Shown in pieces: positions 3,920-27,744 of a stretch of 40,236 bases of DNA. The stretch's first letter is position 1; each line of letters begins with the position of its first letter. The notes beneath the pieces are model-generated. The model saw only the letters and a list, made by a program, of their open reading frames with translations, did not search any database and was not told the origin of the DNA. The translations under genes and the position numbers were made by a program. This DNA is from an uncultured bacterium (GTDB taxonomy: Bacteria; Cyanobacteriota; Cyanobacteriia; CAKZMO01): assembly GCA_964465285.1 (NCBI GenBank), contig CAYXJG010000001.1, positions 5,655 through 45,890 on the forward strand, given 5' to 3'.

Positions 3920-5977
3920 GTGCAAATGCCCCTTCAATTTGGACGTGAAATTTGCGGTGACTTATACACCGCATCTCAACGAGAATGGCTTGTGACCAAT
4001 GGTATTGGTGGCTATGCGTGCGGGACTGTTCCCGGTATTCTCACTCGGCATTATCATGGCATCTTAATTGCTGCCTTGGAGTCGCCCGTGGGCCGCATGT
4101 TAATGGTCACTAAGCTAGATGAGTCTGCGATCTACCATAACCAGATTTACCAACTCTGCGCGAATCGGTGGGCTGATGGCATTGTCAATCCAGAGGGACA
4201 TCGTTATTTAGAACAGTTTTCTCTGGACGGCAGTATTCCAACCTGGCGCTATGTATTTTCAGATGCAGCATTAACTAAGCAAGTTTGGATGCAGCAGGGG
4301 GAAAACACCACCTATGTCCGCTATACCCTGAACCGAGGAAGCGGATCAGTTTTTCTCAACCTGAAAGCGTTGGTGAATTATCGTAACCATCATGGAGGGG
4401 CAACGCTGGGCAACTGGTCAGTTGAGTCAGTCCAGCCTCTGGAAGCCGTGCCTGGGGATTCTTCCTCCCAGACTAGGGTTCGGGTCACAGCATTTAATGG
4501 AGCCACTCCCGTATATCTTTATACTCAACAAGGCAATATCTTAACGGAAAAGCACTGGTATCATAATTTCGATTTGTCGATGGAGCGCTACCGGGGCACC
4601 GGAGAGCTAGAAGATCATCTCCATGCCGCCACCGTTAAAATGACGTTGAATCCAGGGGAGAGCGTGACAGTGGTTGCGAGTACGAACCCGGATGTCTCTC
4701 TGGATGGCAGTGCTGCTTTGGGCGATCGCCATACCTACGACCAGTCTCTTCTAAAATCCTGGTATGCTGCTCACAACATCACCCCAGAGCAGACCCCAGA
4801 CTGGATTCGGCAATTAGTTCTCGCTGCTGATCAGTTCATCGTCGATCGCCCTCTTGCCGAAGAGTTAGATGGCAAGACTGTGATTGCCGGATATCCCTGG
4901 TTTAATGACTGGGGGCGTGACACGATGATTAGCCTACCTGGACTCACCATCAGCCCAGGCCGTCCCCATGTGGCCCGCCCCATTTTGCGAACCTTTGCCT
5001 GCTATCTGAGCCAGGGCATGTTGCCCAATCTCTTCCCTGACCGGGGCGAAACCCCAGGCTATAACACCGTTGACGCGATTCTCTGGTATTTCGAGGCGAT
5101 TCGGGCATACTATGATGCGACCGATGACCAGGCATTGCTAGCAGAGTTGTTTCCTGCCCTGGAGGAGGTCATTGACTGGCACTGCCGGGGGACGCGCTAC
5201 AGCATTCATCTCGATCCTCAGGATGGCTTAATCTATGCTGGGGAACCAGGGGCGCAGCTCACCTGGATGGATGTGAAAATTGGAGACTGGGTGGTGACGC
5301 CCCGTACAGGTAAACCTATTGAAGTCAATGCCCTGTGGTATAACGCCTTGCGGACAATGGCGCTATTTGCCCAGCGGTTGAACCAGTCGCCCAGTCGCTA
5401 CGAGGACATGGCAGAGCAGACCCGCCTGGGGTTTCAGCAATTTTGGAACCGAGCTGAGGGCTATTGCTACGACGTGATTGACGCGCCCCTGGGCTACGAC
5501 GATACCCTGCGACCAAATCAGATTTTTGCGGTGTCCCTTCCTTTTGATAGGGCCTATCACGAAGCTCCCCTGCTGACGGCGGAACAGCAGAAATCTGTGG
5601 TTGATGTGCTGGGGCGAGAGCTGCTCACCTCCTATGGCTTGCGCTCGCTCGCTCCCTCTGACTCAGACTATCGGGGAACCTATGGTGGGCCGCCCGCTGA
5701 ACGGGATGCCGCCTATCACCAAGGAACGGTCTGGGGATGGTTGCTGGGGCCCTACGTACAGGCGTACCTGCGGGTATATCAGAATCCAGAGCGGTGCCGT
5801 GAACTGCTAGGGGCGATCGCCAACCACCTCTCTACCATTGGATTGGGCACCATCAGCGAAATTTTTGACGGGGATCCACCACACTATCCTCGGGGATGCT
5901 TTGCTCAGGCGTGGAGTGTGGCGGAGGTGCTGCGTGCCTGGACGGTGGTGGAAGGGTTTGGGAGTAAGGGGGAATAG
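3920..5977 (+). CDS. glycogen debranching enzyme-like amylo-alpha-1,6-glucosidase family protein
   Basis: N-terminal WLVTNG.GGYA, GYPWFNDWGRDTMISLPGL and a C-terminal (alpha/alpha)6 region with AYHQGTVWGWL. Start is GTG 3920 or ATG 3926. Confidence 0.8.
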   Translation: MQMPLQFGREICGDLYTASQREWLVTNGIGGYACGTVPGILTRHYHGILIAALESPVGRMLMVTKLDESAIYHNQIYQLCANRWADGIVNPEGHRYLEQFSLDGSIPTWRYVFSDAALTKQVWMQQGENTTYVRYTLNRGSGSVFLNLKALVNYRNHHGGATLGNWSVESVQPLEAVPGDSSSQTRVRVTAFNGATPVYLYTQQGNILTEKHWYHNFDLSMERYRGTGELEDHLHAATVKMTLNPGESVTVVASTNPDVSLDGSAALGDRHTYDQSLLKSWYAAHNITPEQTPDWIRQLVLAADQFIVDRPLAEELDGKTVIAGYPWFNDWGRDTMISLPGLTISPGRPHVARPILRTFACYLSQGMLPNLFPDRGETPGYNTVDAILWYFEAIRAYYDATDDQALLAELFPALEEVIDWHCRGTRYSIHLDPQDGLIYAGEPGAQLTWMDVKIGDWVVTPRTGKPIEVNALWYNALRTMALFAQRLNQSPSRYEDMAEQTRLGFQQFWNRAEGYCYDVIDAPLGYDDTLRPNQIFAVSLPFDRAYHEAPLLTAEQQKSVVDVLGRELLTSYGLRSLAPSDSDYRGTYGGPPAERDAAYHQGTVWGWLLGPYVQAYLRVYQNPERCRELLGAIANHLSTIGLGTISEIFDGDPPHYPRGCFAQAWSVAEVLRAWTVVEGFGSKGE

Positions 5978-8697: not shown

Positions 8698-8817
8698 TGT
8701 GTAAACCTTGATGAATTGATTGCTTTTGGGCCTGATGCTTTTAGGTAATCTCTGGGAATGATTGAGATAAGGTGCCGATTGATTCACCGACAAACACTTC
8801 TTTCAATCCCCATTACC

Positions 8818-10326
8818 ATGACTGCCCCATCGCCCCTATCCAAACAGCTCGTCTGTCCAAATTGCAGCGGCAGTTTAACCTTTGACCCGCGCACGAAGCA
8901 ATTGTCTTGTTCCTACTGCGGGGCCAGTCAGGCTCTCCCAAAAACTTCAGGGGAGAAACCATCGGAGCAAAGCTTTGACGACTTTGGGGATGGGGATACC
9001 TCGTCGCCGTCGGCGCTCTCTAATACGGCAATGGAGGTTCAATGTCCGGGATGTCAGGCTCAGATTACCTTTGAACCGCCGGATGTGGCTGGAGATTGCC
9101 CCTTTTGTGGCACTCATATTGTTACTCAGCCCCAGCACGCCAATCCCACCATTGCTCCAAACGGGATTATTCCGTTTCAGTTTGGTCAGAAAGAAGCTCA
9201 GGAAAAAATTCGTCAGTGGCTAAGGACGCTCCGCTTTGCCCCGACAGGGCTGAAGAAACTGGCACAGCATGAGGACATTCAGGGGATTTACTTGCCCTTT
9301 TGGACGTTTGATTGCAACACCCAGAGCCGATACACCGGAAAGCAGGGAACGACCTACTACGTTGAGGTGTCTTATACCGAAACAGACTCGAATGGCAACA
9401 CCGAAACCAAAACTCGGCAAGAGGAGCGAGTCCGCTGGAAGGATGTGAGCGGATCGGTGTCCTATTTCTGTGATGACGTTTTAGTCGCAGCGACCTATGC
9501 CGTTGATAAAAAGCGTCTAGAAGAACTCAAGCCCTGGGATTTCAATAAATTATTGCCCTATCATCCATCGTATTTAGCTGGCTTCAAAGCGCAACGCTCT
9601 GAAGCCAATCTCAATCAGGCATTTGCGGTTGCAAAAGAAGAAGGGATTCGATCGGAGGTCTATGCGGCGATTCGGCGCGATATCGGGGGGGATCGGCAGC
9701 AAGTCAACTCGGCGCAGATAGAGTATACCGATGTGACGTTTAAACATATTCTGTTGCCCGTGTGGATTGCGTCCTATCGCTATAAGAGTCAGACATATCA
9801 AGTGGTGATCAATGCTCAGACTGGGGAGGTGTTGGGCGATCGCCCCTGGAACCAACTCAGACGCATGGCACCGGCGATCGCAGCGGGTTTTGTTGGATTG
9901 CTTGCAGTATTGACCCAGTGCGCCGACGGGATTCTCGACATGTTGCCAGAAGGGGCAGAACCCTCTCCGCCCACCCCCCAACCAACGGAGGTAATCCCTC
10001 CGGCATCGCAGCCGCCTAGTCCTGCCGCTCCATCATCATCATCCCCATCACCCGCATCCCCATCACCCGCATCCCAACCAGAACCCACCCTATCGCCGTC
10101 TGATATCGCCTTCCGAGAGGCGATTAACCGAGCAGGGCAAGCCGCCAACCTGACGCAAACGGCACAAACCCCCCAAGACTGGCAGCAGGTTGAAGCTCTG
10201 TGGACGCAATCGATTGAACTGCTGCTACAGGTGCAGCCGGATCATCCGAACGCCGAAACCGCGCGGCAAAAGGTTCAGGAATATCAGGTGAACTTGAACT
10301 ATGCGCGTCAGCAGGCAGATCAGTGA
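8818..10326 (+). CDS. double zinc-ribbon protein with one TM helix, Pro-rich linker and helical C-terminal domain
   Basis: Two CxxC...CxxC pairs (CPNCSG..CSYCG and CPGCQA..CPFCG), TM helix AIAAGFVGLLAVL and a PSPASPSPAS linker. I chose ATG 8818 over 8758. Confidence 0.6.
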   Translation: MTAPSPLSKQLVCPNCSGSLTFDPRTKQLSCSYCGASQALPKTSGEKPSEQSFDDFGDGDTSSPSALSNTAMEVQCPGCQAQITFEPPDVAGDCPFCGTHIVTQPQHANPTIAPNGIIPFQFGQKEAQEKIRQWLRTLRFAPTGLKKLAQHEDIQGIYLPFWTFDCNTQSRYTGKQGTTYYVEVSYTETDSNGNTETKTRQEERVRWKDVSGSVSYFCDDVLVAATYAVDKKRLEELKPWDFNKLLPYHPSYLAGFKAQRSEANLNQAFAVAKEEGIRSEVYAAIRRDIGGDRQQVNSAQIEYTDVTFKHILLPVWIASYRYKSQTYQVVINAQTGEVLGDRPWNQLRRMAPAIAAGFVGLLAVLTQCADGILDMLPEGAEPSPPTPQPTEVIPPASQPPSPAAPSSSSPSPASPSPASQPEPTLSPSDIAFREAINRAGQAANLTQTAQTPQDWQQVEALWTQSIELLLQVQPDHPNAETARQKVQEYQVNLNYARQQADQ

Positions 10327-10368: not shown

Positions 10369-11547
10369 CTAGCGGCGGCGGGCTTTGCTGATCATTTTTC
10401 GGGACAGGCGCAGTTTGATGTCTTCCTTTTCCGCCCAGTCTTGCAGGAGCTTGAAAAAGGCTTGGCGATCGGTGGATTGCAGCACAGCCGTCTGGTCAGC
10501 GGTTTCGATGACGTAGGGATAGCCACTGCCAATGATGACTTCACCCCGCACCCAATCCATGACCCGATTAGCTAGACCGCTTTCATAGAGCCACACGGGC
10601 ATCTCGACCCGAGCAGGGTAGCTATCTCGGGTCGTTTTGAGATAAGTAAAGGCAATTTGGTCGCTCTGCTTGCCGTATTCACGGAGAATGCCGGAGCGAT
10701 CGCACCTGAAAATTGGTGTGCGATCGCCCCACTCCATAAACGGATTTAACAACTGAGCATCATGGATAGCAGGGCATTCCGGCAGATTGAACACCTGCTG
10801 GAGCATCACCGTCAAGTCGCGGGCATAGGAGGTGTCGATGAAGCCCACCAGGGGCACCCGGCAGGACTGACTGGTATTGAGCAGCTTCAGAAAACAGTCC
10901 ACATATTCTTTGCGGAGGTCTGCGTCGAAGGCGTCAGCAAAGGTGCCCACCAGGGAGCCATCAAAGAACACCAGGCAATCCTGGGGGTTTCGATGCTCCT
11001 CCATATACCGCACTAGGCGGTTGATTTCCATCTCAAACCGCCGAAAATTCACCCGCCGATCTGCAGGCTCTCCACTCGAAGACACCCGGAGGTCACTGGG
11101 GGTCATCACGTCCACTTCAATGTCTTTTTCGTAGCCGCCCACTTCCAAATGGGGATTCTCGAACCACCCAATCTGAATGAGGGCAACAGGCACGGACAGG
11201 TCTTTCCCTGGAAAAATTTGCGAACCGTCCACCGCAAAGGTGGTGATGTTGGTCAACCGCTGCCGCACCCAGCTCAGGCTCTGCTCCCGGTTTTCCCAAT
11301 TGAAATGGGATGAGATGACGCAGTTGGCGTGGCCCTCGGAGGATTCAAGGGCGATCGCCCCACACTCATGCCTACAAGTCCGCAGCTTCTTCTGGACTTT
11401 GTCGATAGGCCATGTGGAGATTTGATCTAGGGCACTTCGATATTTTTCGAGATAGTCCAGAGCCTTCTGGTTAAACGCCTGGAAGTCGTCACGCTTCTCA
11501 TCTAAAATGGCCTGAATCTGGGAAGGCTTTAGTGGCATAGGTCTCAT
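10369..11547 (-). CDS. NurA-like nuclease domain protein
   Basis: 392 aa. FAVDGSQI and FFDGSL acidic motifs resemble the NurA 5'-3' nuclease family. The function is inferred from recalled motifs only. Confidence 0.55.
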   Translation of the reverse strand: MRPMPLKPSQIQAILDEKRDDFQAFNQKALDYLEKYRSALDQISTWPIDKVQKKLRTCRHECGAIALESSEGHANCVISSHFNWENREQSLSWVRQRLTNITTFAVDGSQIFPGKDLSVPVALIQIGWFENPHLEVGGYEKDIEVDVMTPSDLRVSSSGEPADRRVNFRRFEMEINRLVRYMEEHRNPQDCLVFFDGSLVGTFADAFDADLRKEYVDCFLKLLNTSQSCRVPLVGFIDTSYARDLTVMLQQVFNLPECPAIHDAQLLNPFMEWGDRTPIFRCDRSGILREYGKQSDQIAFTYLKTTRDSYPARVEMPVWLYESGLANRVMDWVRGEVIIGSGYPYVIETADQTAVLQSTDRQAFFKLLQDWAEKEDIKLRLSRKMISKARRR

Positions 11548-13556: not shown

Positions 13557-13820
13557 ATGAGACGCTTTATGATTTCTGGAATTTCAATTGTTGTTCTAGC
13601 GGCCTTTGCATCACCTGCCGCCGCTTTGAGTGAGACCTATCGCAATGAGTTCTACGATGGCTTAGGGAACAAGCTTGAAGAGCGCTTTGAAGATGAGTTC
13701 TACGATGGCTTAGGGAACAAGCTCGAAGAGCGCTTTGAAGATGAGTTCTACGATGGCTTAGGGAACAAGCTCGAAGAGCGCTTTGAAGATGAGTTCTACG
13801 ATGGCTTAGGGAACAAGTAG
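13557..13820 (+). CDS. small secreted tandem-repeat protein (87 aa)
   Basis: Signal-peptide-like MRRFMISGISIVVLAAFASPAAA, followed by EFYDGLGNKLEERFED in 3.6 copies. GAGG lies upstream of the ATG. Confidence 0.5.
   Translation: MRRFMISGISIVVLAAFASPAAALSETYRNEFYDGLGNKLEERFEDEFYDGLGNKLEERFEDEFYDGLGNKLEERFEDEFYDGLGNK
13647..13817 (+). repeat. 48-bp tandem repeat, 3.6 copies, in frame inside the CDS
   Basis: Units start at 13647, 13695, 13743 and 13791. They are nearly identical apart from one silent CTT/CTC difference. Confidence 0.95.
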
Positions 13821-15952: not shown

Positions 15953-16263
15953 AAAGGATAAAGGCAGAATGGAGATTCTTTATGTGCCAGGAGTTCTGCC
16001 TATCAAAAACAGTGGGGCTATTTACGCCGTCGAGTACTAGTTCCCTGGCAGGCGCGGTGCGCGTCATGCGCTACACCTAACCACCAATGGGCTCGATTGA
16101 GTTCTTGCTCCTCGTAGCCCATCAAAGCAACAGGGCCGAGTTGATGTGGCGCGCGCCGCGCACTACATCAGCTCGGCCGCTAGGCAACGCTCGCTTGGCA
16201 AACCACTAAATGACTTCAATTCGCAAAGCATCAGATGTTAAGGTAGGGCAGTAATTCACCTGA

Positions 16264-25952: not shown

Positions 25953-26177
25953 CTAAACGGCGTGCTTGAACAGGGCGTCGAGATAGACGCGGGCTGTGCG
26001 CCGATAGTTGCGAGTGGCATCCATGCTAGTGCTGGTGCCATTTTGCAGCAAAAACAGGGAAAGAGCCGCTGAGAAGACGCGATCCTGATCCCAATCTGGG
26101 TGGGTTTCTAGATAGTTGCTTAGGGACTCATGCAGGTCTTCGGGAATTTCAGCCAAAATGCTGACAGTTGCGTTCAT
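25953..26177 (-). CDS. DUF2811-like small conserved cyanobacterial protein (74 aa)
   Basis: IPEDLHESLSNYLETHPDWDQDRVFSAALSLFLLQN matches my recollection of DUF2811. AGAGGAG ribosome-binding site. Confidence 0.65.
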   Translation of the reverse strand: MNATVSILAEIPEDLHESLSNYLETHPDWDQDRVFSAALSLFLLQNGTSTSMDATRNYRRTARVYLDALFKHAV

Positions 26178-26594
26178 GGGGGGACTCCTCTAAAACGGTG
26201 AATGGGCAATCAACCTCACGGCCCTCCGTCTGGAAATTCCTAAAATTTCTCAGGCGAAAGCGACGCCTTCTGACGGAGAGGAAATCCCTGCCCCCCTACG
26301 CGGACACGGCATAGCAGCTGTAAAGGGGGCAGAGCTTACTCAGGCCAGAGCGCCTTCATAAGGTAGGTGGGCATCATTCTGCGGTATGTCACCCAGAACC
26401 GTCAATGGCATTTATGTGAAGCGAAAGCGTTTACAAAAAGATCCGATTTACGAGGAAATGAGGCTTTGAGGTCGTTTTCTGTTACTTAACTTTACAAAAA
26501 ATAGGGATTTCTCAGGAAAATTACCCTTGTGTATTCGTATTCCCCAGCAAGAGACAGAGATCCTTGCAGCACGAAGGGTGGGCTGTTCAGAAGT

Positions 26595-26678
26595 TGTGGA
26601 AAACCTGGGGAGATGTGTGGAAAACTGTGGAAAACCTGTGGAAAGGATGGGGAAACCTTGTGGAAAGAGTGGGGAAAA
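26595..26678 (+). promoter_or_regulatory. array of eight co-oriented, helically phased DnaA-box-like 9-mers (candidate oriC or DnaA-binding locus)
   Basis: 9-mers start at 26595, 26606, 26616, 26626, 26637, 26648, 26659 and 26670. Three are perfect TGTGGAAAA, three have one mismatch, one has two and one has three. Spacing is 10-11 bp. Confidence 0.6.
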
Positions 26679-26786
26679 ACTCTCCGAAAGATAAGAATTG
26701 AAAAACGTCAGGAAATTCAAAATATTGCTATCCCCTAGAGCTTCACGGCAGGCTTGTGTAGAATAGCGATCGCCCATCTAGGGCAT

Positions 26787-26882
26787 GAAAATTAAATACC
26801 TTGAACTAAATTTGGCTGGAGCGGCGCGACGATGCCGCGCCGCTCCAGTAAGATTGAACTCGATTTAATCCTTGTTCCTAGG
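26787..26882. mobile_element. F4 MITE-like element
   Basis: GAAAATTAAATACCTTGAAC...GGAGCGGCGCGACGATGCCGCGCCGCTCC...GATTTAATCCTTGTTCCTAGG. Confidence 0.7.
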
Positions 26883-26883
26883 C

Positions 26884-26948
26884 TAAGTGAGGAGCATAAG
26901 TGAGGAGCATAAGTGAGGAGCATAAGTGAGGGGCATAAGTGAGGGGCA
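26884..26948 (+). repeat. 13-bp tandem repeat TAAGTGAGGAGCA x5 (last two copies GGGG variant)
   Basis: Units start at 26884, 26897, 26910, 26923 and 26936. The period is not a multiple of 3. Each unit contains a GAGGAG or GAGGGG core. Confidence 0.95.
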
Positions 26949-27015
26949 ACAAATCCCTTACGTCCATCATCATCTTCATTGCGTGATAAAAAAGAACATT
27001 GGGAGAGAACTGGTT

Positions 27016-27744
27016 GTGCCAAAGCTTGGTGTCAACATTGATCATATTGCAACCATCCGTCAGGCACGGCGTACCGTGGAGCCTGACCCAGTCGCTGCAG
27101 CCCTCCTCGCGGAACTGGCCGGAGCTGACGGCATCACCGCTCACCTGCGGGAAGACCGCCGCCATATTCAAGATCGAGATGTGCGCCTGTTGCGGCACAC
27201 TGTGCGAACTCACCTGAACTTGGAGATGGCCGCGACAGACGAAATGGTGGCGATCGCCCTGGATATCCGACCGGATTACGTGACGTTAGTTCCTGAGCGG
27301 CGAGAAGAGGTCACCACTGAAGGGGGGCTGGACGTGGCAGGGCAGCTTGAACGCATGAAAACGGTTATCTCTGCCCTCCAGGGGGCATCGATTCCCGTAA
27401 GCCTTTTCATTGATGCTGATCCCCAGCAAATTGATGCGTCTGCTACGACCCAGGCTCGCTTTATCGAGCTGCACACTGGCCCCTACGCAGAGGCGAAGGG
27501 TGAAGAAGCTCAGATGAAAGAATGGGAGGTGCTGCGCGTAGGATGTGAACGAGCGATCGACGCTGGTTTGCGCGTCAATGCAGGCCACGGCCTCACTTAT
27601 TGGAATGTGCATTCTGTTGCCTGTATTCGAGGTATGGAAGAACTGAACATCGGCCATACCATCATTAGCCGAGCTGCCCTGGTGGGGATGGAGCGAGCAG
27701 TGCGGGAAATGAAGCAAGCGATCCAGGGAACGGTATTATCATAG
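27016..27744 (+). CDS. pdxJ: pyridoxine 5'-phosphate synthase
   Basis: [41 protein letters not shown] and L.IGH. I chose GTG 27016 because the ORF-track ATG 26926 lies inside the 13-mer repeat. Confidence 0.9.

Follow-up and report, generated by a model that had tools for sequence, protein, structure and literature searches.

What would a run of eight DnaA-box-like sequences do in a cyanobacterial intergenic region that has neither dnaA nor dnaN beside it? We address this question for a 40,236-nucleotide stretch of an uncultured cyanobacterium (GTDB lineage CAKZMO01; assembly GCA_964465285.1, contig CAYXJG010000001.1, forward-strand positions 5,655 to 45,890), hereafter the window, in which a head-to-tail array of 9-mers lies between pdxJ and a small gene of the DUF2811 family. 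A first-pass annotation had offered three readings of this array: the chromosomal origin in a non-canonical gene context, a datA- or DARS-like DnaA-regulatory locus, or a DnaA-controlled promoter. We find that the array is real and phased, that it has been conserved in register over long evolutionary time, and that it is always linked to DUF2811 and its predicted promoter in a fixed geometry, forming what we call the DUF2811 module. The origin reading is not supported, the array being distinct from the dnaN-linked origin, and the other two stay the best available explanations. The interpretation we favor, at a probability of about 0.5, is that the array serves as a non-origin site of DnaA oligomerization, by which DUF2811 transcription would be tied to DnaA status, DnaA would be titrated, or both.

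A phased array inherited with DUF2811

As first annotated, the spacer between the two divergent genes is 838 bp long (26178-27015), with DUF2811 on the minus strand and pdxJ, which is followed by ycf54, starting at a GTG at 27016 on the plus strand; the window holds no dnaA or dnaN, again in line with the annotation. The features on which the argument turns are these:

25953 to 26177, minus strand: DUF2811 gene, 74 amino acids, the module's sole constant partner (Pfam PF10929, E = 2.6e-28)
26340 to 26372, minus strand: highly conserved block just 3' of the promoter prediction, where the DUF2811 leader presumably begins
26376 to 26405, minus strand: predicted sigma-70-type DUF2811 promoter, TTGACG-18 nt-CAGAAT, from a consensus scan and conservation
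26406 to 26537: conserved spacer blocks between promoter and inverted unit, from alignments (TTTATGTGAAGC, TTTACAAAAAGATC, ACGAAGGAATAAGGGTTTGAGG, GTTACNTAACTTTAC and TTTCTCAGGAAA)
26538 to 26546, minus strand: single inverted unit, TATTCCCCA on the plus strand and TGGGGAATA on the minus strand
26595 to 26678, plus strand: head-to-tail array of eight 9-mers, consensus TGKGGAAAA, period 10-11 bp, eight helical turns
26686 to 26705: conserved tail block GAAAGATAAGAATTGAAAAA, beginning 8 bp past the last unit, within the AT-rich stretch 26686-26730

All eight annotated 9-mers were found again in one orientation on the plus strand: TGTGGAAAA at 26595, 26616 and 26626, TGTGGAAAG at 26637 and 26659, and the weaker units TGGGGAAAA at 26670, TGGGGAAAC at 26648 and TGGGGAGAT at 26606. 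Their start-to-start steps are 11, 10, 10, 11, 11, 11 and 11. On the opposite strand the array consensus reads as the cyanobacterial DnaA box TTTTCCACA, a box of the TTTTCCACA type (PMC4674748), and the match that the annotation had claimed extends to 9/9 positions. The inverted unit TATTCCCCA, 49 bp from the array in the window, is a ninth unit beyond the eight first listed. Seventeen matches to the box occur in the window at one mismatch or fewer, six of them inside the 84-bp array, and the remaining 11 are dispersed at about the chance rate. Eight same-strand TGKGGAR motifs fall within 90 nt, versus a maximum of two in 300 shuffles of the window. Tandem Repeats Finder assigns the array periods of 11, 21/22 and 31, and tracts of three to five A recur along it every 10-11 bp. 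We take the array not for a product of slippage but for a constrained, putative nucleoprotein scaffold with its sites on one face of the helix. The source genome is rich in young tandem repeats, such as a 48-bp unit at 13645-13817 (3.6 copies, 99% matches) and a 16-bp unit at the window edge, 1-60 (3.8 copies, 100% matches); the DnaA-box array, by contrast, is old and diverged.

In the genome collection the best PdxJ identity was 81%, and closer relatives were reached through protein look-ups. Following a comparison proposed in the first-pass annotation, we examined the spacer in related strains and found both synteny and the in-register array retained in L082 (PdxJ 93% identical) and L085 (87%). 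The array occurs upstream of DUF2811 in nine chromosomal lineages, 380-700 bp away and on the opposite strand, past four different neighbor genes: ycf54 in L086, a GAF-HisKA kinase gene in L090, pdxJ in L094 and in L. ohadii (L097), and, in distant lineages, DUF1823 in Desertifilum (L226) and a nucleoside transporter gene in a PCC 7367-like genome (L224). Upstream of pdxJ in distant cyanobacteria (L002-L036) both the array and DUF2811 are absent, an apparent lack of conservation that is explained by the array belonging to DUF2811 and not to pdxJ. The earlier description of it as a feature of the DUF2811/pdxJ spacer therefore has to be given up, since it tracks DUF2811 past different neighbors and onto plasmids. 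Among the pdxJ loci, L028 of an uncultured cyanobacterium has three TTTCCACA-type matches on one strand within 18 bp (16049-16067), 6 kb from pdxJ.

The universally conserved core of the module runs from about 26340 to 26705. Within it the array spans 75-77 bp in the orthologues L082, L085, L086, L090, L094 and L226, and is shorter in L097 and L224, where four or five units cover 54-65 bp. The 12 loci together have 67 units, all on one strand, and it is the 9-mers that are conserved while the 1-2 bp linkers vary; in distant lineages alternate units have decayed and the survivors hold a 21-22 bp phase. Perfect boxes are kept in the Pseudanabaena-like, Desertifilum, Nostoc and Acaryochloris lineages, with three perfect 9-mers in Desertifilum, three in the PCC 7367-like genome and two on plasmid pCC7120alpha. 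The last unit is TGGGGAAAA in 7/9 chromosomal lineages, TGGGGAATG in L226 and TGTGGAAAA in L224.

The inverted unit has the core TCCCCA in every lineage checked except L086 (TCCCCAA). It stands 41-43 or 54 bp from the first direct unit, two spacings that are one helical turn apart, and its distance from the -35 hexamer is 137-140 bp in all but one of the eight lineages in which both were located (118 bp in L224). Both hexamers of the predicted promoter, from which DUF2811 transcription would start near 26369 on the minus strand (about 80,420 on the plus strand of pCC7120alpha), are conserved across lineages, and the spacer between them varies in sequence but is constant in length. On either side, CAGAGCGCCTTCAT.AAGGTAGGTGG in the 26340-26372 block is near-invariant in six lineages, and the blocks of 26406-26537 can be recognized in Desertifilum (L226) and on Nostoc plasmids (L228, L229). 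Six lineages share the tail AAGATAAGAA.T without change; L226, L228 and L229 have it too, and L224 and L097 lack it. In L097 (L. ohadii NKFP01000006.1, 8289-9560) about 125 bp of the module are present as a direct duplication, after which its left half and part of pdxJ recur in inverted orientation; this arrangement is either a real palindromic rearrangement or a misassembly.

In a tblastn search of a plasmid collection, 21 large plasmids of cyanobacteria proved to carry paralogues of DUF2811. The module, plasmids included, is multi-copy per genome. The whole module lies upstream of the copies on plasmid1 of Nostoc sp. HK-01 and on pCC7120alpha of Anabaena/Nostoc PCC 7120. On the latter (NC_003276.1) the boxes occupy 80,156-80,208 and the DUF2811 gene 80,566-80,763, the promoter copy reads TTGACA-18-CACAAT, and, counted by hand, 137 bp separate the -35 hexamer from the inverted unit and 42 bp the inverted unit from the first direct unit. 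The module is likewise found upstream of Acaryochloris plasmid copies of DUF2811, with a perfect TTTTCCACA as the inverted unit. In this genus each strain has such paralogues on several plasmids (NC_009926.1, NC_009928.1, NC_009929.1, NZ_AP026078.1 and others), and pREB1 carries them at two places. In two Acaryochloris records the gene stands at the extreme end of the record; neighbors of the Acaryochloris plasmid copies include an RNA-binding protein gene upstream and a gene for a protein with a double-stranded-RNA-binding motif downstream.

The question of a replication origin

Read as an origin, the array would be either the chromosomal oriC with atypical neighbors or an origin of secondary or plasmid type. 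Its box density invites this reading: the 84 bp hold six boxes at one mismatch or fewer, and eight by a relaxed count, which is the kind of cluster by which an oriC is recognized. The adjoining AT-rich stretch is, as annotated, 73% A+T, within the top 0.8% of 45-nt windows; the intergenic region is long and conserved; and the module occurs on plasmids. In a survey of 68 cyanobacteria, the origin adjoined dnaN (or dnaA) in 55 and was predicted away from dnaN in 13 (PMC4674748).

The relatives argue otherwise. We scanned metagenomes for phased pairs of TGTGGAAAA and obtained 80 loci, of which 15 adjoin dnaA or dnaN and none adjoins DUF2811. The Leptolyngbya-type dnaN locus L120 led, through its DnaN, to two further dnaN loci, L220 in Leptolyngbya ohadii (GCA_002215035.1) and L223 in a metagenome-assembled genome of the Elainellaceae (GCA_050331615.1). 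Each of these two genomes carries the DUF2811 module on another contig (L097 and L095, respectively), so that a canonical dnaN-linked origin exists elsewhere in both. The regions upstream of dnaN in L120, L220 and L223 contain 3-5 perfect copies of TTTTCCACA each, in both orientations, and their box clusters end in the abutting pair TTTTCCACAGTTTCCACA, followed by a short GC cluster, then CTA-type DnaA-trios (CTACTACTnCTA) and finally AT-rich DNA. By its sequence this layout is that of the basal unwinding system, in which a single or paired box is separated by no more than 16 bp from a run of three or more DnaA-trios of the right polarity, with AT-rich DNA beyond them (PMC8287927).

A scan built on that definition was positive in 3/3 of these dnaN-upstream regions and negative in 7/7 of the relatives' DUF2811 spacers. 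In the window it returned a single marginal match, which is not conserved and lies outside the array. In the clade's canonical origins, on the strand that reads TGTGGAAAA, the unwinding element is found 5' of this box; the AT-rich stretch to which the first-pass annotation had pointed, at the right end of the array, is on the opposite side, and the array lacks DnaA-trios in the required polarity. Furthermore, every unit of the array has the same orientation, several copies of the module occur per genome, and neither dnaN nor dnaA is found in any of the DUF2811 and pdxJ loci examined (1.48 Mb in total). In pCC7120alpha, HK-01 plasmid1 and pREB3, the annotation shows neither rep nor par within 6 kb of the DUF2811 copies, and a plasmid origin of the iteron type, with 17-22 bp iterons beside rep, does not agree with units of 10-11 bp. 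We reject the origin reading because relatives have dnaN-linked origins, the unwinding system is missing, the module is multi-copy and occurs on plasmids, and no rep or par gene is nearby; as far as the relatives bear on it, it fails by the refuting condition set in the first-pass annotation itself, and we regard it as very improbable in any of its forms. Cumulative GC skew over the window is noisy, follows gene orientation and is uninformative. Origin predictors that count TTTTCCACA boxes could mistake the module for oriC in cyanobacterial genomes.

Other box arrays deserve mention. Inside the canonical origin of L223 (4627-4680), a perfect TGTGGAAAA is followed by the four phased weak units TGGGGAAAT, CAGGGAAAA, TTGGGAAAA and TGGGGACAA, resembling an anchored low-affinity array. 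The metagenomes contain near-perfect tandem arrays of an 11-bp unit, the DnaA box with a 2-nt linker, at L110 951-1088 (TTTTCCACAgc, 11-12 copies), L139 61-135 (TGTGGAAAAgc, seven copies) and L103 122-246 (five copies plus two), in unrelated organisms with GC contents of 37-66%.

What may act on the array

On the reading that we favor, DnaA would bind the perfect TGTGGAAAA units first and then fill the weaker TGGGGAAA units cooperatively, giving a head-to-tail oligomer on one face of the DNA over eight helical turns; this oligomer might also bridge to the lone inverted unit at 41-54 bp. This complex would sit at a fixed distance, about -190 to -280, from the sigma-70-type DUF2811 promoter, and DUF2811 expression would follow the cellular level of DnaA (probably of ATP-DnaA). 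Titration would come as a side effect, each module copy taking up about eight or nine DnaA molecules. We infer from sequence that DnaA is the binding protein, that the promoter is used as predicted and that binding alters transcription.

In favor of DnaA, the clade's dnaN-linked origins L120, L220 and L223 use the same box TTTTCCACA, and phased same-orientation runs, including weak units of the TGGGGAAA type, occur inside the origins L220 and L223. Domain IV of Cyanothece DnaA binds cooperatively to two boxes 2 nt apart (PMC4674748), and a review of cyanobacterial replication proposes a transcription-factor role for DnaA in species whose replication can do without it (PMC7198777).

Several points weigh on the other side. 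The array lies at least 190 bp from the predicted -35 hexamer, and this distance is conserved; the boxes at well-studied DnaA-regulated promoters sit closer than that. About a quarter of the units have G at position 3 (TTTTCCCCA), a position of the DnaA box that contacts DnaA in E. coli; acceptance of either G or T there makes another protein possible as the binder. Two plasmid copies of DUF2811, those of pREB3 (A. marina) and pLBA (L. boryana), are without the module. Finally, the case for DnaA binding is one of box-sequence identity, and the DUF2811 transcription start is a predicted one. We considered the T/G frequency at position 3 as a discriminator against DnaA and set it aside: G occurs in 18/67 array units and in 5/25 origin units, a difference that is not significant (Fisher p = 0.59). 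The 9/9 agreement of the unit consensus with the DnaA box, the weak phased runs in true origins and a position 3 that does not discriminate together lead us to favor cooperative DnaA oligomerization.

The same tolerance of G or T would suit an operator for a different sequence-specific protein, most attractively for DUF2811 itself as an autoregulator. Ribbon-helix-helix proteins, among them ParR, omega and CopG, coat direct-repeat arrays of 7-11 bp beside their own genes, and here gene and array are co-inherited as one cassette, plasmids included. The AlphaFold model of DUF2811 places helices at 13-25, 31-46 and 52-71, and an unstructured N-terminus followed by helices of 13 and 16 residues matches a strand-helix-helix layout, in the right register by hhalign. 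However, the ribbon-helix-helix assignment lacks statistical support: the hhalign probability is 22%, against approximate reference sequences; Pfam gives DUF2811 only, with no clan match; and the monomer model has a pLDDT (predicted local distance difference test) of 58.8, with no Foldseek match below E = 0.8. The protein is also acidic (about 10 acidic versus 6 basic residues by our own count), an operator at least 190 bp from the promoter would be atypical of an autorepressor, no gene for a partner nucleoside triphosphatase is nearby, and the exact 9/9 coincidence with the DnaA box would be left unexplained. We regard such an operator as the main rival, with the odds well against it.

The array likewise resembles the parC/ParR and omega arrays in having direct repeats of about 10-11 bp by the gene of a small protein, a possible strand-helix-helix layout and a presence on plasmids. 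It differs in that no ParM or ParA partner is found, the array is clear of the promoter and the repeat is a DnaA box; the ribbon-helix-helix fold is a candidate only.

If DnaA is indeed the ligand, the array might instead be a chromosomal element in the manner of datA or DARS, whose main task would be to titrate DnaA or to change its nucleotide state; the link to DUF2811 would be of secondary importance. The eight or nine sites of DnaA-box type that lie apart from the origin would fit, the conserved flanking blocks could bind an accessory bending protein, and with the element repeated within genomes and carried by plasmids, titration would rise with the number of replicons. The datA and DARS1 and DARS2 loci of E. 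coli are likewise DnaA-box clusters outside the origin that adjoin specific genes (PMC10950094, PMC10380432), and they work with accessory DNA-bending proteins (PMC10380432, PMC10950094). They nevertheless differ from the array in box number, orientation and spacing, and strict co-inheritance with DUF2811 at a fixed promoter distance, a feature of the module and not of datA or DARS, would be needless for titration.

The core of a DARS is three boxes, of which I and II are adjacent and oppositely oriented, and datA combines a box cluster with an essential IHF site to promote hydrolysis of DnaA-bound ATP. In the module the eight units run head-to-tail with the sole inverted unit 49 bp off, so that no core of oppositely oriented adjacent boxes is present, and we saw no IHF consensus by eye in the conserved blocks. 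To our knowledge, the functions of datA and DARS are known from enterobacteria only. We consider an element of this kind unlikely.

The A3-A5 tracts that recur every 10-11 bp raise the further thought that no specific protein is involved and that the array acts through DNA shape, as phased A-tract curvature that works like a far-upstream promoter element, or as an RNA with UGUGGAAAA or UUUUCCACA units. A conserved TTGCAA-like hexamer after the array may point the same way. Yet TG.GG is as strongly conserved as the A-tract, and for an RNA there is no Rfam match, no terminator was found, neither a consistent downstream gene nor a conserved downstream RNA exists, and the T/G flips follow no base-pairing logic. 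We hold this explanation to be quite improbable.

Returning to DnaA oligomerization, the closest parallels are the DnaA-box clusters of B. subtilis, the dnaA, nrdAB and mioC promoters of E. coli and gidA of P. aeruginosa, where consensus and near-consensus boxes lie in non-origin intergenic DNA by a promoter; the roles expected of such clusters are transcription control and titration (PMC4447404, PMC11317965, PMC13438810). Unlike them, the DUF2811 module is strictly head-to-tail, with eight units at 10-11 bp and one inverted unit; its geometry is fixed over deep phylogenetic distance; its array lies 190-280 bp from the predicted promoter; and it travels as a cassette with a single small gene, both on chromosomes and on plasmids. 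In its fine structure the array is closest to R5M-tau2-I1-I2 and C3-C2-I3-C1 of E. coli oriC, where same-orientation 9-mers, strong and weak mixed, are 2 bp apart (PMC10325909) and suit head-to-tail DnaA oligomerization. Those arrays lie within the origin, two of them opposed and flanking an unwinding element, whereas the module has one array and no unwinding system and the origin is elsewhere.

Other spacer features and the meaning of the cassette

Both TTTACAAAAA copies that had been annotated left of the array are present, as parts of a 29-nt imperfect direct repeat. The 13-mer tandem repeat TAAGTGAGGAGCA x5, also annotated, was located at 26884-26948, between the module and pdxJ, and is absent in relatives. 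A hairpin element at 26787-26877, with 20-nt arms at 26809-26855, is missing from the orthologous spacers of L082 and L085, and a 75%-identical copy lies 3' of ycf54 in L084; it fits a small mobile repeat, the miniature inverted-repeat transposable element of the first-pass annotation.

In the presumed 5' leader of DUF2811, an inverted repeat AATCCCTGCCCCC / GGGGGCAGAGCTT spans 26283-26337 on the minus strand; the corresponding arms in L082 and L085 differ in sequence yet look complementary by eye (CCCTCTTTGCAA/TTGCAAAGAGGG and CCTCTTTAT/ATAGAGGGG). RNAalifold on six leader sequences gave a weak consensus fold (-4.4 kcal/mol, one compensatory pair). Three candidates in the spacer were discarded: a leader peptide MKALWPE (26340-26363, minus strand), which is not conserved; a TAGAAT -10-like element for pdxJ (26759-26764), which is kept in the four closest lineages only and lies outside the universal module; and a rightward promoter TTGAAA-17-AATATT (26698-26726), whose -10 is not conserved and which has no gene downstream in Desertifilum or the PCC 7367-like genome. 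Checking the conserved blocks by eye, we found no consistent match to NtcA- or HLR1-type sites. A tRNA scan of the window found none, and Rfam 15 gave no match in the window at gathering score and only chance-level ones, at E >= 1, in 26100-27050. Elsewhere in the window, a gene for a NurA-domain nuclease (10369-11547, minus strand) is convergent with one for a 522-residue protein with weak zinc-ribbon matches (8758-10326, plus strand).

Our literature search turned up neither a description of such an element in cyanobacteria nor any paper that mentions DUF2811. Very little is known of cyanobacterial DnaA beyond the origin. Synechocystis and Anabaena keep DnaA although their replication does not require it, and it has been proposed to act in transcription, on targets that are not known (PMC7198777). 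A deeply conserved array of fixed geometry with one small gene is a concrete, genetically testable candidate for such a target, and it is available in a tractable model strain on pCC7120alpha (NC_003276.1, about 80,156-80,763). Speculatively, the DUF2811 cassette may be a conserved, pan-cyanobacterial, non-replicative target of DnaA that accounts for the retention of dnaA where replication does not need it, for instance in Anabaena PCC 7120 with its cassette on pCC7120alpha; in that case DUF2811 would be an unrecognized replication or cell-cycle factor that reports DnaA status or acts back on DnaA boxes.

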